A stretch of DNA of 61,816 bases from Rickettsiales bacterium (GCA_033762595.1 JANRLM010000049.1:1-61816), one strand, 5' to 3'; positions 37,016-50,928 are shown, counted from the stretch's first letter. Made by a program: numbers and translations. The notes: generated by a model from the sequence alone, not told the origin.

Positions 37016-38158
37016 CTAAATCGTAGTAAAATCATCAGCGTCAAAAGTGAAATTTGAAGTTGTATTAACTTCAATTATTTGACCATCAGGTAAAGTAATT
37101 TCTGATATAGAACCAGTTTTAACAATCACTAAATCGCTGAAGTCAATTCCAGAATTTAGAGCAATTTTATCGCCATTGCGAAAGCCTTTAATAATATCTT
37201 TCTCGCCACTAGCGGTAAAATCAAAGGTGAATATATCATTTCCACCGCCACCTTCTAAAATATCATTTCCAAGCCCACCGCTGATATTATCATTACCACT
37301 ACTAGCTCTAATATTATCATCACCATCGCCGCCTTTAATAATATCATTTCCACTTCCACCAAAAATGCTATCATTACCAACACCACCATCAATTATATCA
37401 TCGCCACTGCCAGCATAAATTAAATCATCGCCATCATCGCCATTAAGTTCGTCATTCCCTAAGTTACCATACAATTTATCAGCACCATCTCCCCCTGAAA
37501 TCTTATCATCACCAAATCCACCTCTTATATCGTCATCTCCTGCATCACCATTAAGCTCGTCATCGCCTGATTTACCTCTAATAATATCCTCACCATCTCC
37601 ACCAGCTAAAATATCGTTACCTCTACTGCCATAAACTTGGTCATTTCCTGATCCAGCATCCGCAATATTTCCGTTAGCAGAGTTTTGAAAATAAATCCTA
37701 TCATTATCATCTCCACCAAAAACTAAGGCAAGCCCGCCATCTCTAACAAATATTGCATCATCACCAGTTCCACCATCTATTATATCTCCAACAAAATTTG
37801 TGCCGTTATATGAAATAGAAGCACCAGCACTATCAGAAGTGCCAGATCTTAAAGTGTCATTACCGCCATTGCCAATTATAAGGTCATTGCCAGAACCTCC
37901 ATAAACTACATCTCTATTTTCAGAGCCATTAACAACATCATTGCCTTCTCCTGCATCAACATATGAAAATCTTCTAGTGTTTGCGGGATAATTTGTGTTT
38001 GTGAGGTTTATTTCGTCATTGCCAGCTAGAGCATTAATTCTAACTAAAAAGCCACCATTATCAAAAATGTCATCATTTGTTGTCCCGGTTAATCTTTGTC
38101 CGTTTGCAGTTCCAAGAATAGTCATAAGCCCTCGAAATATAGTTGTTAGCCCACCCAA
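37016..38158 (-). CDS. RTX-type calcium-binding repeat protein (probable type I secretion substrate)
   Basis: 380 aa. About 25 consecutive GGxGxDxxx nonapeptide repeats are present, for example GGDGEDIIRGKSGDDELNGDAGDDDIRGGFGDDKISGGDGADKLYG. There is no N-terminal signal peptide. Confidence 0.8.
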   Translation of the reverse strand: MGGLTTIFRGLMTILGTANGQRLTGTTNDDIFDNGGFLVRINALAGNDEINLTNTNYPANTRRFSYVDAGEGNDVVNGSENRDVVYGGSGNDLIIGNGGNDTLRSGTSDSAGASISYNGTNFVGDIIDGGTGDDAIFVRDGGLALVFGGDDNDRIYFQNSANGNIADAGSGNDQVYGSRGNDILAGGDGEDIIRGKSGDDELNGDAGDDDIRGGFGDDKISGGDGADKLYGNLGNDELNGDDGDDLIYAGSGDDIIDGGVGNDSIFGGSGNDIIKGGDGDDNIRASSGNDNISGGLGNDILEGGGGNDIFTFDFTASGEKDIIKGFRNGDKIALNSGIDFSDLVIVKTGSISEITLPDGQIIEVNTTSNFTFDADDFTTI

Positions 38159-38310: not shown

Positions 38311-38386
38311 GATCCCGTAGCTCAGTCGGTAGAGCATCTGACTTTTAATCAGTGGGTCACAAGTTCGAATCTTGTCGGGATCACCA
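38311..38386 (+). tRNA. tRNA-Lys (anticodon UUU), CCA encoded
   Basis: GATCCCG acceptor stem pairs with CGGGATC. The anticodon loop is CTTTTAA, the T-loop is TTCGAAT, and the 3' end is ACCA. Confidence 0.9.
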
Positions 38387-38460: not shown

Positions 38461-38537
38461 GTCGTGAAAGGGTTGGTTTTGCTAGTGATTATGAACTTTA
38501 GTGAACTTTGTGGGTTTTATAGATGGTCGAGCGGAGG
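38461..38537. repeat. distal att-type direct repeat of the island (contains a 14-nt copy of the tRNA-Pro 3' end)
   Basis: 77 bp matching 50497-50574 with 3 mismatches and 1 single-base indel. It ends in TGGTCGAGCGGAGG, compared with TGGTCGGAGCGGAGG at the real tRNA-Pro 3' end. Confidence 0.85.
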
Positions 38538-38601
38538 CTTTCATATTGTTTGATTAACCAGCTGTATATAAACAATTATCGGTCAATATGAAAAATGCTT
38601 G

Positions 38602-38621
38602 TACCCCCATTTATACCCCCA
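38602..38621 (+). promoter_or_regulatory. candidate integrase arm-type binding sites (distal arm)
   Basis: TACCCCCATTTATACCCCCA followed by GAATG. A near-identical TACCCCCAAATATACCCCCA ... AGAATG is found at 50427-50446, next to the integrase. Confidence 0.45.
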
Positions 38622-38799
38622 GAATGACTTTTTAGAGATATAAAGTATCGTTAATTTTTGTGTTATACTAAATATCAAAAATTTTTCAAGTGCGGTTATA
38701 TGCATTAAAAACACCCCTAAGGGAGATTTTGAAATTTTGATTAGGCTTTATAGGGGTGATTATTCAAGATAAACACTAATATTATTATGGTAATTCATA

Positions 38800-38817
38800 A
38801 AGGGGGGTAGCCCCCTT
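38800..38817 (-). other. G5/C5 hairpin bracketing the cas-distal end of the CRISPR array
   Basis: AAGGGGG-GTAG-CCCCCTT. On the minus strand it is followed by TTTATGAATT, so it is only a weak terminator candidate. Confidence 0.3.
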
Positions 38818-38836
38818 AATCTATAGGAGAGGTTAG

Positions 38837-39994
38837 GTTATAGCTTCCTTTTCCACACAGATACGCTATAATTGCTTGCAGGAAAAGCACTATCGCTATC
38901 TAGTTATAGCTTCCTTTTCCACACAGATACGCTATAATGTTTCACGATTATTTAAGTCGTGTTCGCAAGTTATAGCTTCCTTTTCCACACAGATACGCTA
39001 TAATATTTATTAAGTCCGTATGGCGGTATAATTGGTTATAGCTTCCTTTTCCACACAGATACGCTATAATAACAACTAACCAAAAGGAGCTTTATGATAA
39101 GTTATAGCTTCCTTTTCCACACAGATACGCTATAATGACGGCACATTAGCAGGCAATCCAGTTTTGGTTATAGCTTCCTTTTCCACACAGATACGCTATA
39201 ATGAAAGTAATTGTAAAGAGCTTGCTTTAGGTGTTATAGCTTCCTTTTCCACACAGATACGCTATAATTAAGCAGTATATCTGGTTGCATCTTGTGCGGT
39301 TATAGCTTCCTTTTCCACACAGATACGCTATAATCAAATTCTGATAGGGATATGGGAAATTGTAGTTATAGCTTCCTTTTCCACACAGATACGCTATAAT
39401 TATGCTCACGGGGTTTTAATTCTCCAGTTTGTTATAGCTTCCTTTTCCACACAGATACGCTATAATTGTGTGAAATATTACAATAAGCCCTATATGGTTA
39501 TAGCTTCCTTTTCCACACAGATACGCTATAATTCATAATTAATACTCATAAAATCCTTTTGTGTTATAGCTTCCTTTTCCACACAGATACGCTATAATTG
39601 TTCCAAAATTATAATCATAAGCAAAGCTGTTATAGCTTCCTTTTCCACACAGATACGCTATAATAACAATATCCTCTATTTCTAGCGATAATAGGTTATA
39701 GCTTCCTTTTCCACACAGATACGCTATAATTATTCAAAGCTATAAATTGCAACCAGAATTGTTATAGCTTCCTTTTCCACACAGATACGCTATAATTAAA
39801 AAGAAGTAGCAGTAATAGTACCTTGGGTTATAGCTTCCTTTTCCACACAGATACGCTATAATCAGAAGCTGAATTTATTAAAAATAACATAGGTTATAGC
39901 TTCCTTTTCCACACAGATACGCTATAATTAGGGGCAGTATATCGCTTTACAAACACTAGTTATAGCTTCCTTTTCCACACAGATACGCTATAAT
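38837..39994 (+). CRISPR. CRISPR array: 18 identical 36-bp repeats and 17 spacers, all 30 bp
   Basis: The repeat GTTATAGCTTCCTTTTCCACACAGATACGCTATAAT occurs at an exact 66-bp period, with starts at 38837, 38903 and so on up to 39959. All 18 copies were read as identical. The repeat resembles the Neisseria type II-C repeat, as recalled from memory, and ends in a perfect TATAAT. Plus-strand transcription is inferred (see findings). Confidence 0.97.
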
Positions 39995-40005
39995 CGGTTT
40001 TGGCT

Positions 40006-40038
40006 AACCCCCTGATAACAAAGGGGGTTTTAGCTTTT
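40006..40038 (+). terminator. rho-independent terminator at the cas-proximal end of the array (plus-strand sense)
   Basis: AACCCCCT-GATAACAA-AGGGGGTT is followed by TTAGCTTTT. The complementary strand has no T-run after the stem. Confidence 0.6.
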
Positions 40039-40052
40039 AGTTAACGAAAAAA

Positions 40053-40358
40053 TTACAATAAAACTAGCTGTTCTTTAGTTACTTTTTCTATTTTTTTTCG
40101 TTCACCAACTAATATTTTAATTCTTGAATATTGCTTATCAGTTACCTCTAAAACCCTTACACTACCCCTAGGCGGTAAATTATTTTTTAATCTTGTGATA
40201 TATTTATCAACTGCATCAAGCCCTTTGCAAATTCTGCAATACACAGAAAATTGAACCATAAAATAACCATCATTAAGAAGGTAATTTCTGAATCTGCTGG
40301 CACATTTTCTATCAAATTTTGTTTCAGTTGGAAGATCAAAGAAAACTAAAATTCTCAT
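40053..40358 (-). CDS. cas2: CRISPR-associated endoribonuclease Cas2
   Basis: The start was trimmed to MRILVFFDLPTETK, the typical type II Cas2 N-terminus (the ORF track starts 8 codons upstream at 40382). About 101 aa, adjacent to cas1 and the array. Confidence 0.9.
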   Translation of the reverse strand: MRILVFFDLPTETKFDRKCASRFRNYLLNDGYFMVQFSVYCRICKGLDAVDKYITRLKNNLPPRGSVRVLEVTDKQYSRIKILVGERKKIEKVTKEQLVLL

Positions 40359-40475
40359 ATATCTTTCCTCTTTAATTTTCATAATTTAACTGATTAAAGA
40401 GGCGAATTTATCAAAATTTTAGCTATTTTCCAAGAAAACACGCCACAAGTAAGCGAAGAAAATGTTTGAATTTTA

Positions 40476-41366
40476 TTAAAAACCTAAATTAGGAAGAATT
40501 AAGAAATTTGTATCTTTCTCTTTTGTTGCCTTCTGAAGGGTTTCAGCGGAGCGTTCAATTGCTTTTAGAATAGTAATTTTTTCACCATCAAACATACAAA
40601 ATTTAGTTAATACAGAAATAAGATTCTGCTTATCTTTCGGCGTTAAATCTGGCTTTTCGTTGTCTTGGAATTCTGTATAAACTAATTCATCTATAAAAGG
40701 TCTAAATGGCTCAATTAAATCATCAGCTAAATTAAAAGAATTTAGATTATTTGAGTGAAAAACGCCAAGAGACGGCATAAAGCCCGAAGAAACAACCGCC
40801 CTTGCAACTGCACCCCTTAAAATTGCGTAGCCATAATTTAGTGCTTTGTTTTTTATATCTTCTTTGCCTCTTTTGAAATTAGCAAATAATTCTTGCCAAT
40901 ATTCTTTTGCTGCTTGAGCTTCATTATTTTCTGAATCTCCAGATAATACAGATTTTGAGAGTTTAAGAAGCCTTATATTTTCGGTTTTATTGATTTTTTT
41001 TATAACCGAAAATTGATTGTAAATTTTTTGTTCAATAATTTTTTGCCATATTCTTTTTTTGAAAGGCTCAGACCAATTAATCTGCAAGTTAAAGATTTCA
41101 GTATATCTGCTATGCTTATGAAATGGAAGGAATATACCGCTTGGTAGATGGCTTTTATCTGTTATAAATAAAGCAATTCCATTATCTGCAATTGCTTGTA
41201 ATAAATTTGCAGAAAAGCTAATTTCGCTATTATCAGCCATTATAATGGCAATATCTTCTAAGGGTATTGTAACCTCTTCCGAGTTATCAGCAGGCTTGTA
41301 TAGAAGCTGATTGCTTTTAAGGCTTAACTTTGATTCTTTTGTAATATTTACAATTCGCCAAGACAA
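40476..41366 (-). CDS. cas1: CRISPR-associated integrase Cas1 (type II)
   Basis: 296 aa. It has MSWRIVNITKESKLSLKSNQL (the type II Cas1 N-terminus) and NYGYAILRGAVARAV...GVFH...FNLADDLIEPFRP motifs. It starts 2 nt after the cas9 stop. Confidence 0.93.
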   Translation of the reverse strand: MSWRIVNITKESKLSLKSNQLLYKPADNSEEVTIPLEDIAIIMADNSEISFSANLLQAIADNGIALFITDKSHLPSGIFLPFHKHSRYTEIFNLQINWSEPFKKRIWQKIIEQKIYNQFSVIKKINKTENIRLLKLSKSVLSGDSENNEAQAAKEYWQELFANFKRGKEDIKNKALNYGYAILRGAVARAVVSSGFMPSLGVFHSNNLNSFNLADDLIEPFRPFIDELVYTEFQDNEKPDLTPKDKQNLISVLTKFCMFDGEKITILKAIERSAETLQKATKEKDTNFLILPNLGF

Positions 41367-41368
41367 AA

Positions 41369-44300
41369 TTATACCTCGCTTTTTTTACCAATTGGCATTC
41401 TTTTTTCACCTTTAACTTCTGAATAATTTCCTAAAATATCAACAGAGTATTTTTTGAAGTTTTTTACCTTAGTTATTGAAAACATTTTTGAATATTCAGT
41501 CCTTAATTCCTTTGTTTTCTTATCCAAAATTTTAAATTTTCCGCTTCTATCTTGGGTTTCTAACTCAAATTGACCGCTACTAGGTTTATATTGAATTATG
41601 TAACCAAAATATTCTTTTTTATCACTTTCAAAGCTAATTAGTTCATCTTTAAATAAATGGAATTTGAAACTAAAAGAATTGTCAATAGAGATGTATTTTT
41701 CCCCTCTTTTGTTTGATAATGCTTTCATTTCATTATTTCGTATTCCTTTAATGTCGGTTTCATAAAATGGAACAATAAAATAAAAGTTGTCTTTTTCAAA
41801 CACATCTAGCCTTCTAACTTCCCCTAAATCAGCCTCTGCATTTCCGCTGTTTTTTAGATTAAGAACAGAATCGGATTCAAAATTCTCTGCAATTTTAAGC
41901 TTTTTAATTTGGTTTCCTATTTCATTATTACTTTTTTTAAGGAATACTTCTTTTTCAAACGCTTTAGTGCAATCAAAATTGTTTTCAGTAAGTAACTTCT
42001 TTATGGTGTTATATACTGAATACTCGCTATCAGAATCTTTAAATATTTTATTAGTTTCATCATAAATTCTGTAAGCTAGCATCTTATTTTCAAAATCTTC
42101 AAGGTTTTTGAAAAAATCTTTTTTAGATGCAATTTGTTTTAAACTGATATTTTTAGTAGTAAAATTAAGACCCCGATTTTTAAATTTTGTAGTTTTAAGG
42201 GTTGCTTTGTGAACCTCTCCACTTGCCTTCCTTCTTGCGGCTCTTGAAACAAAAACTTTTTCCAAATGGAAATTGACTTCATTTCTAAAACTTTCTTTAT
42301 CTCCCCACGGGGTAGGAATGTTAGATTTATTGGCAAATTTCTTAAGCCATTCTTTACCTTTTTCTTCCTTGCGTTTAGTGAAGTTGGATAGATATTGAAC
42401 CATTCCCTGCGTTGATACTGAACAAATTAATGCATCAACGGCGTGGTGTTTATCGCCTTCGGAGCGAACTTTTTCAAAGCCCCAATTATGACGCAAAAAT
42501 GCTGTTAATGAGCCGTTTCTGGTTTGAACCTTGTTTTTTATTTTATCGTTTTCATTTAATTTTAAGAATGATTTTATATATCCCGCTGTATATTTGGTTG
42601 CGTAAGAGGTATCTCTTAAATTCCTCTCTATAAAATCATCTGATTGTTCAAATTTTTCTTTTAAGAGCCTATTCTTTTTTGGTAATGGCAAATTTGATGC
42701 AACTATTCTATCTTTGAAAGCTCGCCATTTATCCGTATCAACACCAAAATATTCAGCAGGAGTTTTATTACCTTTTTGCCTATTTTCGCTAGCAAAGCAT
42801 AAAACCTTATTATTTAAGCTATCATCTAAACATCTGCTGTAGGGGATTATATGGTCTATATCTAAAGAGTTATAGTCTTTTAAGTTTTCAATTTTAATAT
42901 CATTTCCAGAATAAATACATTTTTCATTTTGTTGACGCCATAATCTTAGCCTTAATAAATTTGCTCCTTCATCTGGCTTTAATCCAAGATTTTCACATTC
43001 TTTTCTTGCTTGCTCTTTTTGGTCTTGAAAGGCTTTTTGCCCTTTCTCAATTTTTCTTCTTTCACTATGGGAATTCTTAGCATCTCTAGTAAATTCAATA
43101 TTAATTTGGTCTGGTCTGCCATGCTGTCTAATAACCGCATTTACTACTTTTCTAACTTGACAAACCGCCCTATGAACAACTGGGTTTCTTATAGGTTCAA
43201 AGTTAATTCCTTTTTTCTTAAGCTCTTCAAAAGATGGTAAATAGTCAAACTTTTCTGATTCAGAATTGGGGTTATAGTGTTTGTATCCCGCTAATTCACA
43301 AGCTTTTGAATAATTATAACCTTGTTCTAAAAAGGGATTAATTTTTCTTAATGCCCCTAATGAAAGATGCATATACTTAGAAAATGCTACTGATTTTAAC
43401 TTTTCTGCAATTTCAGGCTTGGTAATTTGTATTAGCTCATTATAAGCTTCCTCTTCTGATTTAGTCGTAGTTAAAATCTCGCAAATTTTATCAAATTTCT
43501 CACTATTATTTAGAAGGGCGTGGAATTCTTCTTTTCCAAATTCCTCGTGAATGTTTTTTATAGTATTGAAGCCTTTTAACTCTATAAATTTTTCTGCTTC
43601 AGGATCTTTCTCTTTGCCTTTGCTATTCTTAAAAGTTGAATAATTTAACCCCTTAAATATTATTGTTTCATCTAGCTTTAGAGCTTTTCTTAGAGTTTTA
43701 TAAGTTAATGTTTTTTGACTTAATGCAACCTCTTTTATAATCCTTTTTTGTTGTTCGGTTAACTCTATTTTTTCAGGGTTATCAATGGTTCTAAGGCTCA
43801 AATTTGAAATTTTAGTTAATAAATTAAAAATTTCTGCTGAGTAAGAATTCCTTGGTGCTCTAAGCTCATCTTTCTCAAAAGTGCATTTACCAATCATTTT
43901 TTCCATCTGCTTTCTATCTATTGCAGATTTTTGGCTAAAGGCTATTTCAATATATTTATTAACAAATTCAGTATTTATAAAATTTGCACCAAGCGAGGCT
44001 TGTTTTTCTAATATTAGTTTTGCTTCTTTCTCGGTTAGGTCTCTAGGAATTGAGTTTATATAAGTTTCAGATTTATTTCTGAACGGCTTATCATTAATAT
44101 TTGTGCGAACCAAAAGCTGAGGAAATGTTAACAAACCTTCCTCTTTAAGTCTCTGAGTATTTTCTCTGATTGCATTTTTTACAAGCCCATCTTCTGATTT
44201 TTTCTTTTCATCTGATATTTCGCCCTTTTGGGGTTTATATCCTCTAAGTTTTGCAATATGATATAGAACCCTAAATAATTCCGCTTCATTTATTCTTCTC

Positions 44301-44665
44301 TCAAGCCCTTCTGCTCTTAGTTGCCAAGGTGATTTTTCATATGCTTGTGGCTTCAAAATATCTTCTATTTGCTCGAGTGATAAAATATTATACTCTGCAA
44401 AAAGTTTTTTGATTTTTTCTAACCTAAATCTCCTTCTTCTTAGCCTTCTTCTTGATGACCTTTTTTCTCTTCTTGGCAAAGCAAGAGACTTACCATCTTT
44501 TGGGTTTTCTGCTTGTGTGAAAGCCCTTACGCCCAAGCCTAATAATTTGCCTTGAATAATTTCTCCAGTTTCTGGATCAATAGTTTGTAACTTATCTTCA
44601 TCAATTTCTGAAATTGCCCAGCCTATTGATGATATTCCTATGTCAAGCCCTAGAATTTTTTTCAT
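41369..44665 (-). CDS. cas9: Cas9 (type II-C size class, ~1098 aa), all nuclease motifs intact
   Basis: The start was trimmed to MKKILGLDIGISSIGWAI (RuvC-I). It has an Arg-rich bridge helix (RREKRSSRRRLRRRRFRLE), RuvC-II (INIEFTRD), HNH (DIDHIIPYSRCLDDSLNNKVLCFASENRQKGNKTP) and RuvC-III (HHAVDALI). No csn2 or cas4 is present, so the subtype is II-C. Confidence 0.95.
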   Translation of the reverse strand: MKKILGLDIGISSIGWAISEIDEDKLQTIDPETGEIIQGKLLGLGVRAFTQAENPKDGKSLALPRREKRSSRRRLRRRRFRLEKIKKLFAEYNILSLEQIEDILKPQAYEKSPWQLRAEGLERRINEAELFRVLYHIAKLRGYKPQKGEISDEKKKSEDGLVKNAIRENTQRLKEEGLLTFPQLLVRTNINDKPFRNKSETYINSIPRDLTEKEAKLILEKQASLGANFINTEFVNKYIEIAFSQKSAIDRKQMEKMIGKCTFEKDELRAPRNSYSAEIFNLLTKISNLSLRTIDNPEKIELTEQQKRIIKEVALSQKTLTYKTLRKALKLDETIIFKGLNYSTFKNSKGKEKDPEAEKFIELKGFNTIKNIHEEFGKEEFHALLNNSEKFDKICEILTTTKSEEEAYNELIQITKPEIAEKLKSVAFSKYMHLSLGALRKINPFLEQGYNYSKACELAGYKHYNPNSESEKFDYLPSFEELKKKGINFEPIRNPVVHRAVCQVRKVVNAVIRQHGRPDQINIEFTRDAKNSHSERRKIEKGQKAFQDQKEQARKECENLGLKPDEGANLLRLRLWRQQNEKCIYSGNDIKIENLKDYNSLDIDHIIPYSRCLDDSLNNKVLCFASENRQKGNKTPAEYFGVDTDKWRAFKDRIVASNLPLPKKNRLLKEKFEQSDDFIERNLRDTSYATKYTAGYIKSFLKLNENDKIKNKVQTRNGSLTAFLRHNWGFEKVRSEGDKHHAVDALICSVSTQGMVQYLSNFTKRKEEKGKEWLKKFANKSNIPTPWGDKESFRNEVNFHLEKVFVSRAARRKASGEVHKATLKTTKFKNRGLNFTTKNISLKQIASKKDFFKNLEDFENKMLAYRIYDETNKIFKDSDSEYSVYNTIKKLLTENNFDCTKAFEKEVFLKKSNNEIGNQIKKLKIAENFESDSVLNLKNSGNAEADLGEVRRLDVFEKDNFYFIVPFYETDIKGIRNNEMKALSNKRGEKYISIDNSFSFKFHLFKDELISFESDKKEYFGYIIQYKPSSGQFELETQDRSGKFKILDKKTKELRTEYSKMFSITKVKNFKKYSVDILGNYSEVKGEKRMPIGKKSEV

Positions 44666-44688
44666 AACTTCAATCTTAGGTTTATTTC

Positions 44689-44716
44689 TTGACATTACTA
44701 AACTTAGAATTATATT
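44689..44716 (+). promoter_or_regulatory. sigma-70-type promoter for the tracrRNA candidate
   Basis: TTGACA (44689-44694), a 16-nt spacer, then TATATT (44711-44716). It is divergent from cas9, and the anti-repeat begins ~17 nt downstream of the -10. Confidence 0.55.
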
Positions 44717-44723
44717 CAATAAT

Positions 44724-44831
44724 GAATTTCTCTTATAGAATATCTGTGTGGAAATGGTTGTTATAATAAGAAGAAATTCGTGGGTTCCTCCCGTGGCAAT
44801 ATTTTATATATTGTTTCGGGATACCCTTTTT
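44724..44831 (+). ncRNA. tracrRNA candidate
   Basis: The anti-repeat at 44733-44766 (TTATAGAATATCTGTGTGGAAATGGTTGTTATAA) is complementary to the plus-strand repeat at 27 of 34 positions, including a 14-nt perfect block. It is followed by the hairpins CGTGGG-TTCC-TCCCGTG (with G-U pairs) and GGG-ATA-CCC, then T5. The ends are estimates. Confidence 0.75.
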
Positions 44832-44850
44832 GATTAACTTATTTACGGCT

Positions 44851-45015
44851 TTAATAATTCTCAGGTTTATCCCCCCTCAGCTTATCTAAAAAATCTGCCC
44901 AATCTTGCATCATTTGTTTTCTTTCTTTTAGATATTCAGCCCTATCATATGCAGAACCCAAAGCACCTTTTTTGCTATGTGCAAGGTGAGCATCAACAAC
45001 ATCAAATTTGTAATG
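44851..45015 (-). pseudogene. C-terminal remnant of a second P4-type integrase
   Basis: The reverse strand reads HYKFDVVDAHLAHSKKGALGSAYDRAEYLKERKQMMQDWADFLDKLRGDKPENY-stop. It aligns with the intact integrase C-terminus GFKYDVIERQLAHGERNKVRASYNHAQYLKERREMMDWWGEFIEKLGG (about 40% identity by eye). An in-frame stop lies 5 codons upstream, and no N-terminal part is present. Confidence 0.75.
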
Positions 45016-45031
45016 TGTAATTTTTTGTTAT

Positions 45032-45496
45032 CTAACCCCTTATAATCTCCGCATATCTCTCCACTAATGCAAGCATTTGGTTAGCTTCTGAGGGGCTTAT
45101 TTTGCCAGTAATCATATTTTTAACTATTAACTCCCCTGCTTGTTTAATATCCTCTTTATTATTGAGTGTTATTTCTGAAATTTCAGCGGTTTCATCTTCA
45201 AGCAAGCAAACATTTTCAGGGCGTGGTGCAGGGATTATTTTATTTAATAGTAATTCTATAGCGTCTAAATGTCACCATTTTGCTTTTTCTATAAGCTTCT
45301 GCATTATCTGCTGGATATTCTCTTCGGTGATATGTTCAGCTAACCTTGTAAGTTTATTTTTACAACCTTTGGGCTTGCCTAGGGGGTTGCCACTCACCCC
45401 TTTTTGAAATAGCCATGACTTATGATTTTGAGAGCTAGAAATAACTAATTGCTGATTTCCAACTGAATTTTCAGATGTGGTAGTTATTTCAGTCAT
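45032..45496 (-). pseudogene. DUF5681-like phage/plasmid protein interrupted by an in-frame TGA
   Basis: The 74-aa ORF (45272-45496) contains FQKGVSGNPLGKPKG. Reading through the TGA at 45272-45274 in the same frame continues with HLDAIELLLNKIIPAPRPENV...ITGKISPSEANQMLALVERYAEIIRG to a TAG at 45032. Together these match the full-length family layout. Confidence 0.55.
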
Positions 45497-45499
45497 ATT

Positions 45500-45787
45500 T
45501 TATATGCGGTCGTAAATTTTTAAATAAAACTTCAACAATCTATAATTTTTTAGCAGATTTGCTCGACAAACCCATTTATTGCCTTCGTCCTCAACTTTTG
45601 GCTCTAAAAAAGTTCCACCTTGCTTAATTAGAAAGTCATCATAGTTGCCACTTAAACAAAATTTTGTATGTTCCCAGTCAATTTCACCAAAAACAACCTC
45701 AAAAGATTCAATAAATTCCTGAGTAAATTTTAGTAATACATCTTCTTTCATATTTATATTAGGTGTTAAGATTATTAAAGAAATCAT
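45500..45787 (-). CDS. hypothetical protein (island cargo)
   Basis: 95-aa ORF on the same strand, tightly packed with its neighbours. No recognisable motif. The start is uncertain (internal Met at codon 13). Confidence 0.35.
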   Translation of the reverse strand: MISLIILTPNINMKEDVLLKFTQEFIESFEVVFGEIDWEHTKFCLSGNYDDFLIKQGGTFLEPKVEDEGNKWVCRANLLKNYRLLKFYLKIYDRI

Positions 45788-46082
45788 ATTTTATCACATC
45801 ATTATAAGCTTCTCTTTCAGCAATGTTTTTAGGCATACCGCCATCATATTGCATTATTGAGGCTCGTTCTTCCCACCACTCATATTGTTTAGGGTTGAGC
45901 TGCTTTAGTTTTTTAAGTAACGAATAAGAAACATTAGGCTTTGAAACATTTTGTTTAGTTCTTACAACAAAATTATCGTTACTTGTTTCAACTTTATTTT
46001 TATTTTTGTTTCGCTCGATTACTAGCAAAGCCAAGTCTTTTAAGCTCATTGTTTCATAGTTGTTTATAGTTTTGTATTGCAT
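45759..46082 (-). CDS. hypothetical protein with an EERAxIMxYDGG...AEREA motif
   Basis: 107-aa ORF. The C-terminal WWEERASIMQYDGGMPKNIAEREAY resembles a short motif common in phage/plasmid replication-associated proteins. Confidence 0.4.
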   Translation of the reverse strand: MQYKTINNYETMSLKDLALLVIERNKNKNKVETSNDNFVVRTKQNVSKPNVSYSLLKKLKQLNPKQYEWWEERASIMQYDGGMPKNIAEREAYNDVIKYDFFNNLNT

Positions 46083-46141
46083 AAATATTTTTGTTTCATT
46101 GTTTCAAAACATAGTAAAAAAACAGCGGAACAACCTCCTTT

Positions 46142-47122
46142 CTATTTTGTTTTCTTTCTTCTTATCTCAATAAGTTTTTCAGCTTCCGCCTTCTTAATAA
46201 GCCGATTTACCTTGCTTAAATTTAAACCTGTTTCTGTGGCTATATCTCTTTGCTTTAATCCGTCATTGTGAAGTTCAATTACTCTATTTAGCTCTGCATC
46301 TTCTATTTCCGATATTTTCCACCCCCCTTCATTTAGCCAAGCTTCAAAAGGTTTCGCATCATCACCATAAAAACCACGAGATTTTTCATAATGAACTTCA
46401 AATCTTGCACCTTGCTCATTTTGATAATCTTGCGGGCGTTTAAGAGTGATTACGGTATCTAAGATATCCTCCTTCTTTGATGTTCCTCGCTGGCTTCCGC
46501 CTTTATTGGAGTGATGAATAAACAAAACGGATTTGCCTTTACTTCTGAGCTTCAAAACCCACTCTTGAATAAGCTTCCAGCTATCTTCGTCATTTTCTTT
46601 GCCAGACCTGCAAAGTGTAGAAAGATTGTCTAAAATTATTAACTTTGTATCTTCGTGAATATGTTGCTCTATTTTTGCCTGCCCCTCTGGCTCTGATAGA
46701 TTAGGAACGCCAAATTCTTGCATATCTGGCGTGATAATATCCAATGAAATACTTGAAATATCATAATCCTTAATCATTACAGCAAGCCTTTCTTGCAGAA
46801 CATTGGCTGGCATTTCGCCATCAATAAATAAAACCCTGCTTGGTTTTTTGCACTTCCACTTTTCACTAAAAAGTGATTTTCCAGAAGCAACAGCAAGCGC
46901 AATAGATAACGAAACTTGAGTTTTTCCTATTCCACGCAAAGCATAAAGCATCACCAGCCCTTGCGTTGGTATTATTGGCGAAAGCAACATTTCTCTTGGT
47001 GGAATAACTTTTGCCATAAACTCTTTTAAGGCAATGCAAATAACCTCTTTAGTGTCAGTTTTTTCTTTTGGCATAAATTCTTCTGCACTTGAAATTAATT
47101 CTTTTATTTGTGCTATTGTCAT
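46142..47122 (-). CDS. RecA-fold AAA ATPase (AAA_25/RepA-like) with a C-terminal HTH
   Basis: 326 aa with Walker A (LRGIGKTQVSL), Walker B (LIILD) and HHSNKGG. The C-terminal LKQRDIATETGLNLSKVNRLIKKA is HTH-like. It starts 1 nt after the primase stop. Confidence 0.7.
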   Translation of the reverse strand: MTIAQIKELISSAEEFMPKEKTDTKEVICIALKEFMAKVIPPREMLLSPIIPTQGLVMLYALRGIGKTQVSLSIALAVASGKSLFSEKWKCKKPSRVLFIDGEMPANVLQERLAVMIKDYDISSISLDIITPDMQEFGVPNLSEPEGQAKIEQHIHEDTKLIILDNLSTLCRSGKENDEDSWKLIQEWVLKLRSKGKSVLFIHHSNKGGSQRGTSKKEDILDTVITLKRPQDYQNEQGARFEVHYEKSRGFYGDDAKPFEAWLNEGGWKISEIEDAELNRVIELHNDGLKQRDIATETGLNLSKVNRLIKKAEAEKLIEIRRKKTK

Positions 47123-47123
47123 A

Positions 47124-48017
47124 TTAATTACCTTTTAATAACTCGTTGAAATCATTGGCATTTTCTGGCTTTACAACATTCACAGAGTAGCTTTGAGCAA
47201 CCAATCTAGTTGCTAGTTTCTCTGAGGCTTTTTGACCTGCTTCATCATTATCGGTTGCAATAATAATGCTGGAAACTTGAGTTATTGGCGGAGGTGAAAA
47301 ACTTTCAAAATTTGAGGCTGAAAGCAAAGCCCAAACTGGATAATTGACAGCTTCTAAAATTGATAAACCTGTTTCAATACCTTCGCACACTATTAAAGGT
47401 GCAAACAAAGCTCCACTAAGCCTAACAGCTCCTCCTGAAATGTTGCCAAGCATCATCTTGTTGGGCGTAATATCCGCTTTATTATTGGTGATTTCGTCTA
47501 AGTATGTTCGGTGCAAGCCAATTACTTCACCATCTATATTTTGAACAGCTGCTAACATTGCAGGATAGCTTTTCTGAGTTGCAGAGTGCCATAAATTGGG
47601 GTGGTATTTTAACGATGCAGGAAGCTCAGATTTTTCTACACCTCTATGTTTACGCAAATAAATTTCAACAGGTGTATTTTCTAGGTTAGAAGTTGCTTCA
47701 CTTAGAATGTTTTGGATATAGCTTTTCTTTTTATAATCTAATACTTTAGGATTTTTAGTATCTTTAGGGTTGCCTAAATTATAAACTTTACTAACATAAT
47801 TATTGTTGGTTTCAAAAATTACACCTAGCGAAGCTAACTTTTGCTTTATGTCGCTGTAACTGCAACCAGCAAAACACTTAGCACCAAGCTTGCCGCTCTT
47901 GGTTTCATAAAGATATAAACTAGGGTTTGCGTCTTTATGTGATGGGCAGCAACAAATATAGCCATTTCCAGATTTTTTGGCATTTAATGCTAACGCTATT
48001 TTATGGAGATTAAGCAT
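47124..48017 (-). CDS. zinc-binding plus Toprim-domain primase-like protein (P4 alpha N-terminal type)
   Basis: It has YICCCPSHKDANPSLYLYE...AKCFAGCS (a CHC2-like zinc ribbon) and a C-terminal Toprim region (IVCEGIETGLS...ATDNDEAGQKA). The start was trimmed to MLNLHKIA to limit the overlap with alpA. Confidence 0.7.
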   Translation of the reverse strand: MLNLHKIALALNAKKSGNGYICCCPSHKDANPSLYLYETKSGKLGAKCFAGCSYSDIKQKLASLGVIFETNNNYVSKVYNLGNPKDTKNPKVLDYKKKSYIQNILSEATSNLENTPVEIYLRKHRGVEKSELPASLKYHPNLWHSATQKSYPAMLAAVQNIDGEVIGLHRTYLDEITNNKADITPNKMMLGNISGGAVRLSGALFAPLIVCEGIETGLSILEAVNYPVWALLSASNFESFSPPPITQVSSIIIATDNDEAGQKASEKLATRLVAQSYSVNVVKPENANDFNELLKGN

Positions 48018-48225
48018 TATTATCTCCATTTTCTGTATTAATAGGGCGGGAAGCATCTATTTTTTGTTGAATATAAGCATCTACTTCCGCCTCTAAAAAT
48101 CCAATGGCTCTAATTCCCAGCTTGACTGGTTTTAGCTCCCCTTCTTTTATTAATTGGTATATTTTGGTTTTTTTGAAACCAATTTTATTCATCAATTGCG
48201 GCAATCTAATGATTCTCTTTTCCAT
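48010..48225 (-). CDS. alpA: AlpA-family transcriptional regulator / excisionase-like HTH protein
   Basis: 71 aa. RIIRLPQLMNKIGFKKTKIYQLIKEGELKPVKLGIRAIGFLEAEVDAYI is the AlpA/Vis pattern. Confidence 0.8.
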   Translation of the reverse strand: MEKRIIRLPQLMNKIGFKKTKIYQLIKEGELKPVKLGIRAIGFLEAEVDAYIQQKIDASRPINTENGDNNA

Positions 48226-48311
48226 ACACTCTCATTGAGGTTTATGGAGTAAATTGAATGAGTTACACAAATATACAATTTAACAAACTGCCCCCAGAAA
48301 GATGGGGACGG

Positions 48312-49205
48312 CTATTTATTGATGTAGCTATTTAATATATTGAGGAAGTCTTTAGATTTAATAAACAATTTTTCTGAGTTATCACTTTCAAATAGTATTT
48401 TTTGGAAATTATAATTATTGTTAACTATTATTGGCAGTTCTGTCTCATCATATAAAGTTACACTACTATTTTTGGATTTGGGTATTTCAATTAAATCTTT
48501 TCTGCAAGATTCTACAAAATTATACAGATACAATCCATAATTATCTGGAAGATTAGAATGCTTTGAAAACTCCGAATGAATTAATGCATATATAATATGA
48601 GTATATTTCTTATAAGTTTTTAGAGCATTTTCAATATCCTCTTTTCTCTTATAGCAGTAGCTATCTTCAAAAAATGGATTTTGCAAATTTATCATTAAAT
48701 GAATTATTAAATTTTTGCTTAGAGACTTTTCTCTTGTGGAAGCCATTTTATCTAAAGAAGAAAAAACTTGATTTTCCTCTCGTTTTAAGAGCAAAAGATA
48801 ATAAACAAATAAAAAAACTGTATTTACTTTTTTTGCAGTAGCTCTCTTATTCCCTTCAATATATGAAACGGTGATAGTTTCGTATGTATCAATTTCAGAT
48901 AAATGATCAGAGATATTATTTTTGAAATCTTGTCCCAAAAACTCAAATAATTTTAAATAAGCAACTTCAGAAGCGAATTTAAGCCATATTTCATTTTTAA
49001 ATTCACTTTTTATAACTTTACATAGAAAGCTATTATCCGATTTTTTAAAATCTCTGTAGAACCTGCATAAGCATAGCTTTTTTGCTTTATCAACATCGCC
49101 ATCAAAAATAATTAATCCTGAGAGAAATTCACGCAATATCTCATAACTAAGAGTATTTCCAAAGTCTAAGCCAGTAATATCAATAGTGTTTACTTCTTTT
49201 GACAA
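48312..49205 (-). CDS. hypothetical protein, integrase-adjacent cargo
   Basis: 297-aa ORF whose stop lies 1 nt before... strictly, the integrase stop at 49207 lies 1 nt upstream of this ORF's start at 49205. No recognisable motif or TM segment. Very AT-rich. Confidence 0.45.
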   Translation of the reverse strand: MSKEVNTIDITGLDFGNTLSYEILREFLSGLIIFDGDVDKAKKLCLCRFYRDFKKSDNSFLCKVIKSEFKNEIWLKFASEVAYLKLFEFLGQDFKNNISDHLSEIDTYETITVSYIEGNKRATAKKVNTVFLFVYYLLLLKREENQVFSSLDKMASTREKSLSKNLIIHLMINLQNPFFEDSYCYKRKEDIENALKTYKKYTHIIYALIHSEFSKHSNLPDNYGLYLYNFVESCRKDLIEIPKSKNSSVTLYDETELPIIVNNNYNFQKILFESDNSEKLFIKSKDFLNILNSYINK

Positions 49206-49206
49206 A

Positions 49207-50382
49207 TTACCCTCCTAATTTCTCTATAAACTCACCCCACCAATCCATCATTTCACGGCGTTCTTTTAAATATTGGGCGTGGTTGTAACTAGCTCTAACT
49301 TTGTTGCGTTCGCCGTGTGCAAGTTGGCGTTCAATCACATCATACTTAAAGCCGTGTTCATTTAAAATGGTGCTGGCAGTGGCTCTGAATCCGTGTCCTG
49401 TTGCCCTGCTGTGATAACCCATTCTATATAAAGCGTAAAGAATAGTGTTATTGCTCATTGTTTTATGAGGTGAATTTTGAGAAGGGAATAAAAAAGGGCG
49501 TAAGCCAGTTATGTTTTTTAGCTCATTCAATAGATTTAGAACTTGCTCAGATAAAGGAACTATATGTTTTTCCCTCATTTTCATTCTTTCTGGAGGAATA
49601 TGCCATTCTTTTTTGTCAAAATTAAACTCTTCCCATTTTGCATTTATTAGTTCACTGGTTCTAACAAAGGTTAAAATTAATAACTGTATTGCAATTGGAG
49701 TAATTATATCGCCTTTATAATCTTTTAGTTTTTGCATAAACTCTGGTAAATCTTTTTCGGTTAGGTAAGCATGGTGAACTTTCTTTCTGGTCTTTAATGC
49801 CCCTCTTAAATCTGCGGAAATATCTCTTTCAGCTTTACCTATTGAAATAGCGTATCTAAAAATCTGTCCGCAAGTTTGGCAAGCTCTATGAGCGATATCA
49901 ATTGCTCCACGCTCTTCAATTTTTCTAATTAAAGTTAAAAGCTCCTGAGCAGTAATAGAACTAACGGCTTTGTTGCCAATATATGGGAAAACATCTGCAC
50001 CAAGTCTTTTTAGAACATTTTTAGCGTGTTTAGATGTCCAAGTTGGTTTTTGGAGTTCGTGCCATTCATGAGCTATATATTCAAAAGTATTTTCGGGGTT
50101 AGTTTCTGATTTTAGCTTTTGTTCTTTTTTCTGTTCTACTGGGTCAATGTTTTGCTTAATTAGCTTTTTAAGCTTTTGCCTTTCCTCTCTGGCTTCAAGT
50201 AGGGTAATTTCTGGATAAGCTCCAATAGCATAAACCTTTTCTTTACCTGATATTCTATATTTTAATCTCCAATATTTAGAGCCGTTCGGATGAATCAATA
50301 AATATAACCCGCCATCATCTGAAAGCTTATATTGCTTTTCTTGTGGTTTAGCAGATTTAACTTTTATGTCAGTTAGGGGCAT
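49207..50382 (-). CDS. int: P4/CP4-57-type tyrosine integrase
   Basis: The start was trimmed to MPLTDIKVKSAKPQEKQYKLSDDGGLYLLIHPNGSKYWRLKYR (DUF4102-type N-terminus). The C-terminal catalytic region is HGFRATAST...LAHGERNKVRASY. It lies adjacent to the tRNA-Pro 3' end. Confidence 0.9.
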   Translation of the reverse strand: MPLTDIKVKSAKPQEKQYKLSDDGGLYLLIHPNGSKYWRLKYRISGKEKVYAIGAYPEITLLEAREERQKLKKLIKQNIDPVEQKKEQKLKSETNPENTFEYIAHEWHELQKPTWTSKHAKNVLKRLGADVFPYIGNKAVSSITAQELLTLIRKIEERGAIDIAHRACQTCGQIFRYAISIGKAERDISADLRGALKTRKKVHHAYLTEKDLPEFMQKLKDYKGDIITPIAIQLLILTFVRTSELINAKWEEFNFDKKEWHIPPERMKMREKHIVPLSEQVLNLLNELKNITGLRPFLFPSQNSPHKTMSNNTILYALYRMGYHSRATGHGFRATASTILNEHGFKYDVIERQLAHGERNKVRASYNHAQYLKERREMMDWWGEFIEKLGG

Positions 50383-50426
50383 AACAGGGTTAAAAATGGG
50401 GGTATAAATTAAAAGAGCAATTCTTA

Positions 50427-50446
50427 TACCCCCAAATATACCCCCA
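50427..50446 (+). promoter_or_regulatory. candidate integrase arm-type binding sites (int-proximal arm)
   Basis: TACCCCCAAATATACCCCCA, plus an inverted copy TGGGGGTA at 50397-50404. It matches 38602-38621. Confidence 0.45.
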
Positions 50447-50496
50447 TTTGTGCAGAATGTCAATGAACTGAGGTGAACGCCAATAAACAATAGAGC

Positions 50497-50574
50497 GTCG
50501 TAAAAAGGTTGGTTTTGCTAGTGATTATGAACTTTAATGAACTTTGTGGGTTTTATAGATGGTCGGAGCGGAGG
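50497..50574. repeat. tRNA-proximal att-type direct repeat (overlaps the last 15 nt of tRNA-Pro)
   Basis: 78 bp matching 38461-38537. Confidence 0.85.
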
Positions 50575-50636
50575 GATTCGAACCCACGACCCCCAGTACC
50601 CAAAACTGGTGCGCTACCAGGCTGCGCTACGCTCCG
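50560..50636 (-). tRNA. tRNA-Pro (anticodon UGG), CCA encoded
   Basis: The reverse complement is CGGAGCGTAGCGCAGCCTGGTAGCGCACCAGTTTTGGGTACTGGGGGTCGTGGGTTCGAATCCCTCCGCTCCGACCA. The anticodon loop is TTTGGGT. There is one U-U mismatch in the T-stem (50:64), inside the att overlap. Confidence 0.88.
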
Positions 50637-50722: not shown

Positions 50723-50798
50723 TGGTGCTACAGATGGGAATCGAACCCACGACCCCTGCATTACCAATGCAGTGCAACTACCCCTGTGCTACTGTAGC
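50723..50798 (-). tRNA. tRNA-Thr (anticodon GGU), CCA encoded
   Basis: The reverse complement is GCTACAGTAGCACAGGGGTAGTTGCACTGCATTGGTAATGCAGGGGTCGTGGGTTCGATTCCCATCTGTAGCACCA. The anticodon loop is TTGGTAA. Confidence 0.88.
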
Positions 50799-50884: not shown

Positions 50885-50928
50885 CCCTAACCCTAACCCT
50901 AACCCTAACCCTAACCCTAACCCCTAAC
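50885..50928. repeat. telomere-like hexamer microsatellite: (CCCTAA)x6 plus one variant unit
   Basis: Six perfect CCCTAA units at 50885-50920, then CCCCTAAC. It lies in the intergenic region between tRNA-Thr and the rluD stop. Confidence 0.95.

Follow-up and report, generated by a model that had tools for sequence, protein, structure and literature searches.

The 61,816-nt stretch of DNA analysed here (JANRLM010000049.1:1-61816 of GCA_033762595.1, a Rickettsiales bacterium; referred to below as the window) contains a segment of 12.0 kb that lies between two copies of a direct repeat at the 3' end of a tRNA-Pro(UGG) gene. The segment carries a type II-C CRISPR-Cas9 locus together with integrase, AlpA, primase and helicase-like genes, and all of its listed protein-coding genes are on the minus strand. 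Open reading frames (ORFs) were annotated with Pfam, PHROG and NCBIfam/TIGR, and tRNA and other RNA genes with ARAGORN and Rfam. The repeat occupies positions 38461-38537 (77 nt) and 50497-50574 (78 nt), with three mismatches and one 1-nt indel between the copies, which reproduces the coordinates and counts given in an earlier note on this DNA. The tRNA-proximal copy of this putative attachment (att) site comprises the last 15 nt of the intact tRNA-Pro(UGG) gene (50560-50636, minus strand; ARAGORN; Rfam, 62.5 bits), the presumed integration target, and the 63 bp downstream of it. The distal copy comprises the 63 bp otherwise found downstream of tRNA-Pro and a 14-nt pseudo 3' end, which corresponds to the 15 nt of the tRNA less one deleted nucleotide; both copies are thus as the note had described them. 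When up to three mismatches are allowed, a search of the window with a 30-nt and a 28-nt sub-pattern of the repeat finds exactly two copies of each, with none expected from shuffled sequences, and therefore the att repeat is not a dispersed one. The case of a generic repeat present at many loci, which the note had named as damaging to its own reading, is excluded by these counts for the window.

A P4-type tyrosine integrase of 391 aa (49207-50382, minus strand) is located 177 bp from the 3' end of tRNA-Pro, directly beside it as had been claimed, and is intact: it contains the Pfam domains Arm-DNA-bind_3, Phage_int_M and Phage_integrase, its homologs align across residues 1-389, and the motifs VRTSE, HGFRAT and SYNHAQY are present, which by our reading would represent the R, H-x-x-R and Y positions. 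The 10-bp motif TATACCCCCA is found in four exact copies in the 61.8 kb, with 0.05 expected and none of 100 shuffled sequences reaching four, and all four lie no more than about 110 bp inside the ends of the island, one on the left (38612) and three on the right (50397, 50425 and 50437). A fifth copy with one mismatch (38600) stands beside the left-hand one; this tandem pair (38600-38621, plus strand), 62 bp inside the distal att, is a candidate P' arm, and the three exact copies of the 50397-50463 region (50397 on the minus strand, 50425 and 50437 on the plus strand) are candidate P-arm sites. The right-hand copies are overlapped by a predicted integrase promoter (TTGACA-17-TATATT, 50463-50435, minus strand), which faces the integrase gene and belongs with one other to the two best promoter matches of the region. 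Arm-type sites flanking the attP core are an established arrangement for arm-binding integrases such as those of lambda and P4, and the attP of P4 of Escherichia coli carries arm-type repeats on both flanks of its core. The TATACCCCCA copies may likewise be integrase arm sites, which would flank the 78-bp core after circularisation by recombination between the repeats.

Metagenome contigs were scanned with the integrase, which gave 45 loci at several tRNAs and at tmRNA. None of these loci contained cas genes or the backbone of the window, and only one, from another genome (L047), was informative. Here, the 63 bp next to a tRNA-Pro(UGG) gene are again those of the repeat, with 92.5% identity to the left att copy; they are succeeded by one copy of TATACCCCCA conserved at the same position, and then by the first 45 codons of an integrase 93% identical to that of the window, after which homology ends. 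Since homology between L047 and the window passes beyond the repeat on the integrase side only, the repeat boundary at about 38460 should be the true junction of the element with the host. As judged from this arrangement, L047 is a decayed occupied site and not an empty one. N-terminal integrase fragments of about 80-95 aa (42-48% identical) were also observed in L008 (605-841), L009 (228-509) and L012 (304-570), each of them directly upstream of a complete integrase that belongs to this family, an arrangement that suggests repeated tandem insertion and decay at the same att sites.

The part of the segment distal to tRNA-Pro is occupied by the CRISPR-Cas9 locus. The array (38837-39994, plus strand) has 36-nt repeats (GTTATAGCTTCCTTTTCCACACAGATACGCTATAAT), 18 in number and all identical, which enclose 17 spacers of 30 nt, every one of them unique. 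All repeats terminate in TATAAT on the crRNA strand, which pairs with the tracrRNA and is opposite to the cas genes. The intergenic region between the array and cas2 (39995-40052) is a candidate leader or terminator; it contains a G+C hairpin resembling a terminator (40006-40029) and is 76-81% identical in nucleotide sequence to the region at the same position in three related loci (L001, L004 and L006). It is followed by cas2 (40053-40382, minus strand; Pfam CRISPR_Cas2, E 2e-16; TIGR01573), cas1 of the NMENI subtype (40476-41366, minus strand; Pfam Cas_Cas1; TIGR03639 cas1_NMENI, 319 bits) and cas9 (41369-44665, minus strand). Cas9, 1098 aa long from the start MKKILGLDIG, carries HNH and RuvC domains (Pfam HNH_4, RuvC_III, Cas9_RuvC, Cas9_a) and scores 713 bits with TIGR01865, for which the cut-off is 100.

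Upstream of cas9, a tracrRNA gene (44689-44831, plus strand) was predicted; it contains an anti-repeat, located at about 44732-44767, and the hairpins downstream of this end in a T run. Its promoter (TTGACA-16-TATATT, 44689-44716, plus strand) matches at 11 of 12 positions and is the other of the two best in the region. The anti-repeat pairs with the whole repeat in a duplex of -39.9 kcal/mol, compared with -18.1 for a reverse-complement control, and the region is 88-97% identical in nucleotide sequence in four loci (L001, L003, L004 and L006). Because it pairs with the repeat, adjoins a promoter and is conserved in these four loci, the sequence was identified as the tracrRNA. Between the tracrRNA and the array only cas9, cas1 and cas2 are present; neither csn2 (characteristic of II-A) nor cas4 (of II-B) was found, and so the locus is of type II-C by gene content. 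No further ORF of at least 50 aa occurs on the coding strand between 38538 and 44719. The earlier note had proposed a complete type II-C locus with an array, cas2, cas1, cas9 and a tracrRNA candidate, and every one of these parts is present; the system is complete as far as its sequence can tell and apparently functional, and activity is suggested by the 18 perfect repeats and the 17 spacers, all of them unique.

The Cas9 of the window shares 54-67% identity with its five closest relatives and about 34-39% with the nearest named ones, from Sulfurimonas and Clostridium. The repeats of the array differ from those of L001, L003, L004 and L006 by 2-4 substitutions only. The best Cas9 match, L001, is contig 3 of GCA_964445765.1, a metagenome-assembled genome (MAG) designated 'uncultured Rickettsiales bacterium'. 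This MAG encodes SecA and RluD proteins 94.5% and 87% identical to those of the window and in the same order, and therefore the window should derive from a close relative of the L001 organism; no exact-sequence match of the window SecA and RluD-like proteins was found in a large protein collection. The cas locus of the MAG is on a different contig from RluD. It lies in another integrative element, in the order tRNA-Arg(ACG), DUF6538-type integrase, 282-aa ORF, 190-aa ORF, PrimPol, PriCT_2/AAA_25, DUF5681, cas9, cas1, cas2 and the first CRISPR repeat, at which the contig ends. The part shared with the window begins with DUF5681 (70% identical) and continues through the tracrRNA (97% in nucleotide sequence), Cas9 (67%), Cas1 (86%) and Cas2 (93%). 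The integrase and replication genes of L001 gave no tblastn match to the backbone of the window at E<=1e-4, and the AAA_25 domains of the two gave a weak blastp match over 40 residues (E 4e-4). The same cassette is thus found in a second, unrelated backbone at another tRNA, which supports the mobility of the whole immune module as inferred from these two loci. Beyond its array, the L001 element would be predicted to continue with a pair of the motif TTGCTACACA and then a copy of the tRNA-Arg 3' end. In L003, a P4-type integrase (64% identical to that of the window) and AlpA are encoded from about 6.5 kb beyond the array. Two other genes were observed directly upstream of the tracrRNA and cas9 in these relatives: a Macro-domain protein with a weak DarG-like match in L003 (7383-7880), and a 600-aa protein without a family match in L004 (7854-9656), the latter beside tRNA-Thr.

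The remaining genes of the window element lie between the integrase and the tracrRNA. Directly downstream of the integrase is a 297-aa ORF (48312-49205, minus strand) without a match in Pfam, PHROG, PADLOC or NCBIfam; it has positional analogues of 230-350 aa in L001, L052, L053, L055, L136 and L139. Next come a gene for an AlpA-family excisionase or regulator (48010-48225, minus strand; Pfam Phage_AlpA, E 1.5e-12; PHROG 'excisionase and transcriptional regulator') and a DNA primase gene (47124-48056, minus strand) with a CHC2 zinc finger, DUF7146 and Toprim (Pfam DUF7146, Toprim_3, Zn_ribbon_DnaG; PHROG DNA primase, E 9e-31). An AAA_25 ATPase, RecA/DnaB-like and with a C-terminal winged helix (46142-47122, minus strand; Pfam AAA_25, E 2e-26, and HTH_24; PHROG primase/helicase), is a candidate replicative helicase or initiator; among its 5988 homologs, those named in their source are 'putative DNA primase/helicase', and one was annotated from an Alphaproteobacteria MAG. 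Two small ORFs of 95 and 107 aa (45500-46082, minus strand) have no Pfam or PHROG match. They are followed by a DUF5681 pseudogene (45032-45496, minus strand; Pfam DUF5681) and by an integrase remnant (44872-45012, minus strand), which consists of the last 47 codons and the stop and is 43% identical to the intact integrase (tblastn, E 6e-10). All of the parts listed in the earlier note (integrase remnant, small ORFs, AAA ATPase, primase and alpA) were therefore found between the repeats. The remnant belongs to a segment of about 190 bp that L001 lacks and that separates the stop of DUF5681 from the terminator of the tracrRNA; in L001, DUF5681 is joined straight to the tracrRNA, with homology on both sides and no integrase remnant. 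An attempt to tie the cassette to one integrase lineage by means of the remnant was dropped, as it has no more than 53% identity to any integrase retrieved. A comparison of the backbone with a plasmid collection gave a weak match of the integrase only.

Close homologs of DUF5681 are few in number, and all of them occupy the same position in an element. In L052, the order is integrase, 243-aa ORF, AlpA, 175-aa ORF, PrimPol, PriCT_2/AAA_25, DUF5681 and then a 568-aa ORF; L053 and L054 have a backbone of the L052 type followed by different small genes, six in the complete L053 contig, one of them for an HTH protein. In L055, a P4-type integrase (48% identical), ORFs of 234 and 180 aa, AAA_25 and DUF5681 are followed by a PgpA gene, and no cas genes are present. 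The backbone of L001 is related to those of L052 and L053 in its integrase (61% and 48%), PrimPol (73-75%) and helicase (69-71%). PADLOC detected a generic HTH only among the cargo genes of these sister elements and the 297-aa ORF. The whole contigs of L052 and L053 terminate in identical sequences resembling a tRNA 3' end, of 30 nt (1-30/7685-7714) and 26 nt (1-26/8726-8751), respectively, and the repeated motif TGCTACAC is located just inside both ends of each, as well as ahead of the integrase start in L001. Such identical ends would be expected in these Logan contigs had the samples contained the elements as excised circles, or a mixture of occupied and empty sites, and they could be direct evidence of excision in the sister elements. 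As read from these contigs, the shared architecture begins with att and arm motifs, continues through the backbone and DUF5681 to the cargo, and closes with a second set of arm motifs and att. Two different integrase types, each accompanied by a motif of its own, are found in this arrangement, and the cargo of two members is CRISPR-Cas9. It is because this architecture recurs with differing cargo in the same slot that Cas9 is regarded as cargo, and this is the strongest support for that assignment.

A further group of loci (L136/L137 and L139) contains an integrase, an ORF of about 345 aa, an ORF of about 78 aa, a primase and AAA_25; in L136/L137 these are followed by a 145-aa ORF and variable genes. 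The primase/AAA_25 pair of L136 is about 54% identical to that of the window. A MobA/MobL-TraI-like relaxase and an ATPase_2 protein were observed as cargo in L136 (14650-18036), and on this evidence the backbone type of the window is one that also occurs in islands predicted to be mobilisable by conjugation.

The last gene of the backbone, DUF5681, is a candidate small terminase subunit by gene position alone. The two halves of the window copy, on either side of an in-frame stop, are 70% and 67% identical in amino acid sequence to the 143-aa protein of L001. Eighty IMG/VR contigs encode DUF5681, 47 of them with an ORF of at least 250 aa starting no more than 1 kb downstream on the same strand; 42 of these 47 ORFs were scanned after five near-duplicates had been dropped, and a large terminase was found in about 35 of the 42 (Terminase_6N in 26, Terminase_3 in 8 and GpA_ATPase in 1). 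The gene just before the large terminase is the classical position of the small terminase. A profile search of the Protein Data Bank (PDB) sequences with DUF5681 retrieved no solved small terminase, the best hits (E 0.015) being unrelated proteins, and a Foldseek search of BFVD and PDB with its AlphaFold2 (AF2) model (pLDDT 64) gave nothing below E 0.1.

Taken together, these observations indicate that the 12.0-kb segment is probably an integrative element, inserted at the 3' end of tRNA-Pro(UGG) by its own P4-type integrase and carrying the Cas9 locus as cargo. This is the core of what the earlier note had proposed, a mobile Cas9 module borne by an element with an integrase and a primase, and it is supported by the arm motifs, L047, L001 and the sister elements. 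From the repeats, gene content, motifs, recurrence and alternative cargos, we infer the following course of excision, replication, transfer and targeting. Site-specific recombination, carried out by the P4-type tyrosine integrase, would bring the element into the 3' end of tRNA-Pro(UGG). AlpA and the integrase might then excise it as a circle, in which attP would consist of the 78-bp core with TATACCCCCA arm sites on both sides, and the primase and helicase might replicate the excised circle. Its transfer would be accomplished by a helper and could occur by conjugative mobilisation or by phage packaging; the occurrence of DUF5681 in the position of a small terminase would favour packaging. The Cas9 module may defend element and host alike against mobile DNA that competes with them. 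The copy in the window is decayed (the DUF5681 nonsense codon, the diverged repeats and the integrase remnant) and may be immobilised.

Several observations weigh against the view of the segment as a Cas9-carrying integrative element. The two repeat copies differ at four positions, one of which is the deletion in the tRNA-derived part, and a 36-nt att pattern had no match in metagenome contigs; it had none in IMG/VR either. The distal end of the island adjoins, in the host flank, a tRNA-Lys(UUU) gene (38311-38386, plus strand; ARAGORN; Rfam tRNA, 74.6 bits), and an empty site of tRNA-Lys, about 63 bp and tRNA-Pro had been proposed in the earlier note. The order of the two tRNA genes stands, and the real gap would be about 137 bp (74 + 63). 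The comparison with related genomes suggested there was carried out, and no empty tRNA-Lys/tRNA-Pro junction was found: in the sole close genome synteny ends at RluD, and a scan of genome contigs with RluD retrieved this one relative only, giving no empty site. No integrase was found beside the cas locus of L004 and L006 on the sequenced side. A domain search of the element ORFs detected no relaxase, capsid, lysis or other transfer genes, the integrase remnant marks the element as composite, and DUF5681 contains an in-frame TGA (45272-45277) where L001 has GGA (Gly), the frame being intact on both sides, which would most simply be a recent nonsense mutation. No credible protospacer was identified in the window, the 139 fetched loci, phage and plasmid collections or, for four spacers, IMG/VR. 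A 23-nt match of a spacer to a Bacteroides traK gene (E 0.5) was rejected as being at chance level. A comparison of the composition of the island with that of its flanks, also suggested earlier, revealed a G+C content of 32.5% against 34.6%, i.e. a mildly atypical one only, and the neighbouring flagellar/RTX region deviates as much as the island does; composition is too weak as evidence either way.

The explanation that competes best concerns the origin of the element. Two elements inserted in tandem at tRNA-Pro, one with the integrase, primase and DUF5681 but no cargo and the other a Cas9 island that began with its own P4-type integrase and continued through tracrRNA, cas9, cas1 and cas2 to the array, could have been fused by a deletion that removed the inner att and the greater part of this second integrase, so that the outer att sites now delimit one unit. 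We consider this a reasonable possibility with somewhat less than an even chance; it concerns history more than the present state and is compatible with the integrative element proposed above. It would be the simplest reading of the integrase remnant, which is situated exactly between the stop of DUF5681 and the terminator of the tracrRNA, is oriented as the intact integrase is and shares 43% identity with it. Partial integrases beside full ones, as in L008, L009 and L012, are common in the family, and a DUF5681 element without cas genes, followed by PgpA, exists in L055. The direct junction of DUF5681 with the tracrRNA in L001 fits less well, as the fusion must then predate the split of the cassettes, with a later loss of the remnant in the L001 lineage and a swap of the backbone; there is also no third att copy or pseudo-tRNA end near 44830-45030.

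[quoted passage not shown] This idea is on balance doubtful. The gene order of integrase, AlpA, replication genes and a packaging candidate is consistent with it, as are the length of 12.0 kb, within a range of 5-15 kb, and the lack of structural and lysis genes among the element ORFs. DUF5681 precedes the large terminase in most of the IMG/VR contigs scanned, and five related elements likewise have it, conserved, as the gene with which the backbone ends. In addition, marine satellites with an integrase, AlpA, a primase/helicase and homologs of small terminases have been described (PMC9618062; PMC10803314). On the other side, the profile and Foldseek searches connected DUF5681 with no solved small terminase in either sequence or fold, the gene is a pseudogene in the window, a helper phage is not known, and a search of IMG/VR with Cas9 retrieved no relative. 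The relaxase of L136, which accompanies a related primase/AAA_25 pair, points instead to conjugative mobilisation. The broader proposal that elements with the order integrase, variable ORF, AlpA, primase, helicase and DUF5681 are natural phage satellites of Rickettsiales-like bacteria, whose cargo slot captured a complete CRISPR-Cas9 system on one or more occasions and passed it between backbones that differ in integrase and primase, seems to us unlikely.

That the Cas9 locus is an ordinary chromosomal one, with the repeat produced by local duplication or rearrangement between regions downstream of tRNA-Pro genes, would agree with the position of the repeat (15 nt inside the tRNA and 63 nt outside, which is atypical for tRNA-targeting integrases), with a composition not clearly foreign and with the occurrence of some Cas9 relatives among housekeeping genes, but is very improbable given the distribution of the TATACCCCCA arm motif, the conserved junction of tRNA-Pro, 63 bp and integrase in L047, the presence of the same cassette in a tRNA-Arg integrative element of a near relative, and the analogous att and arm architecture of L052 and L053.

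Outside the island, the distal flank contains a gene for an RTX calcium-binding protein with nonapeptide repeats (37016-38158, minus strand; 27-bp periodicity; Pfam HemolysinCabind, E 4.5e-40), with tRNA-Lys on one side and fliS on the other; fliS and fliD, both flagellar genes, lie directly upstream of it. On the other flank, tRNA-Pro is followed by tRNA-Thr (50723-50798, minus strand; ARAGORN, in agreement with Rfam). A telomere-like array of six perfect CCCTAA units and a variant seventh (50885-50928) occupies part of the intergenic DNA that separates tRNA-Thr from the RluD-like gene; neither the rest of the window nor any of the 139 fetched loci has another hexamer run of this kind.

The window element resembles P4 in three respects: its integrase has an arm-binding domain and is placed at the 3' end of a tRNA gene, it encodes a member of the AlpA family, and it combines a primase with a helicase function. 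It differs from P4 in that a search for psu, sid, delta, cos and cI-like functions detected none, in that one gene encodes the primase and another, from a different family, the helicase, and in that the repeat extends 63 bp beyond the tRNA. The 'P4-like' label of the earlier note is therefore apt for the integrase type and AlpA; as no element ORF matched psu, sid or delta in Pfam or PHROG, it was rejected beyond these two. The CRISPR-Cas9 locus itself resembles that of Neisseria meningitidis, a type II-C system which reportedly has promoters within its repeats, in the minimal set of cas9, cas1 and cas2, the 36-nt repeats, the tracrRNA and a -10-like element at the 3' end of each repeat; the TATAAT ends recall those repeat-internal promoters, and by analogy might act in a similar manner. 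The Cas9 of the window is only distantly related to that of N. meningitidis.

CRISPR-Cas systems on tRNA-integrated islands and on integrative and conjugative elements (ICEs) are already known. One study reports tRNA-integrated islands of Vibrionaceae with such systems, including type II-B Cas9 at tRNA-Met in Vibrio natriegens and at a tRNA locus in Salinivibrio (PMC6360697), and the type I-E island GI-24 of V. cholerae, for which an excised circle was demonstrated by PCR (McDonald et al. 2019, PMC6360697). The window element shares with these islands a full CRISPR-Cas locus, an integrase by a tRNA gene and att repeats. The Vibrionaceae islands are larger (about 30 kb in V. natriegens), carry extra cargo such as restriction-modification systems, are of types II-B and I-E, and are not described there as having a primase/helicase/DUF5681 backbone; the element of the window is of type II-C, belongs to a Rickettsiales-like host, and its excision is here predicted from sequence. 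Type II-C Cas9 is also found on CampyICE1 of Campylobacter jejuni and C. coli, a conjugative element of 70-129 kb (van Vliet et al. 2021, PMC8743540), whose CRISPR has been interpreted as a weapon against competing mobile elements (PMC8743540). The CampyICE1 system is degenerate, with Cas9 alone, no cas1 or cas2 and short arrays, whereas that of the window is complete with 17 spacers and is carried by a 12-kb element without conjugation genes. A Cas9 module as cargo of an element with an integrase and a primase, which the earlier note had called unusual, is thus less so than stated, since Cas9 on tRNA-integrated islands and on an ICE has already been published.

Satellites have been described as carriers of innate defence systems (PMC10085698, PMC9618062). 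PICIs, PICMIs and the marine virion-encapsidated integrative mobile elements (VEIMEs) resemble the window element in their small size, the set of integrase, AlpA and primase/helicase, a candidate small terminase, accessory cargo that often serves defence, and the lack of capsid and lysis genes (PMC10085698, PMC10803314, PMC9618062); the difference is that the element of the window is known from its genes alone, with a positional assignment of the small terminase. In the literature searched, no natural satellite with a full CRISPR-Cas9 system was found, and the Cas9-bearing PICIs there were all engineered. A search of titles and abstracts, with incomplete coverage of the literature and hence weak as evidence, returned no CRISPR-Cas locus in Rickettsiales. 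What is new is the compactness of a 12-kb element with no cargo other than Cas9, the recurrence of one cassette in sister genomes on two backbones unrelated to each other, the Rickettsiales-like host lineage and, possibly, the satellite nature of the element family.

The horizontal movement of CRISPR-Cas systems is known, but what carries them is rarely worked out. In the present case the carrier is a small element, delimited at both ends, and it offers a concrete view of how a Cas9 cassette circulates from one small integrative element to another. The compactness of the att-integrase-Cas9 arrangement might be of interest for the design of self-integrating Cas9 delivery cassettes. Should DUF5681 prove to be a small terminase, no natural satellite-like element with adaptive immunity would have been seen before these. 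If the elements are indeed satellites, a programmable, spacer-acquiring nuclease would be carried from cell to cell in the particles of helper phages and could be used against the helper, rival phages or rival satellites, as a natural counterpart of the engineered Cas9-delivering PICIs.

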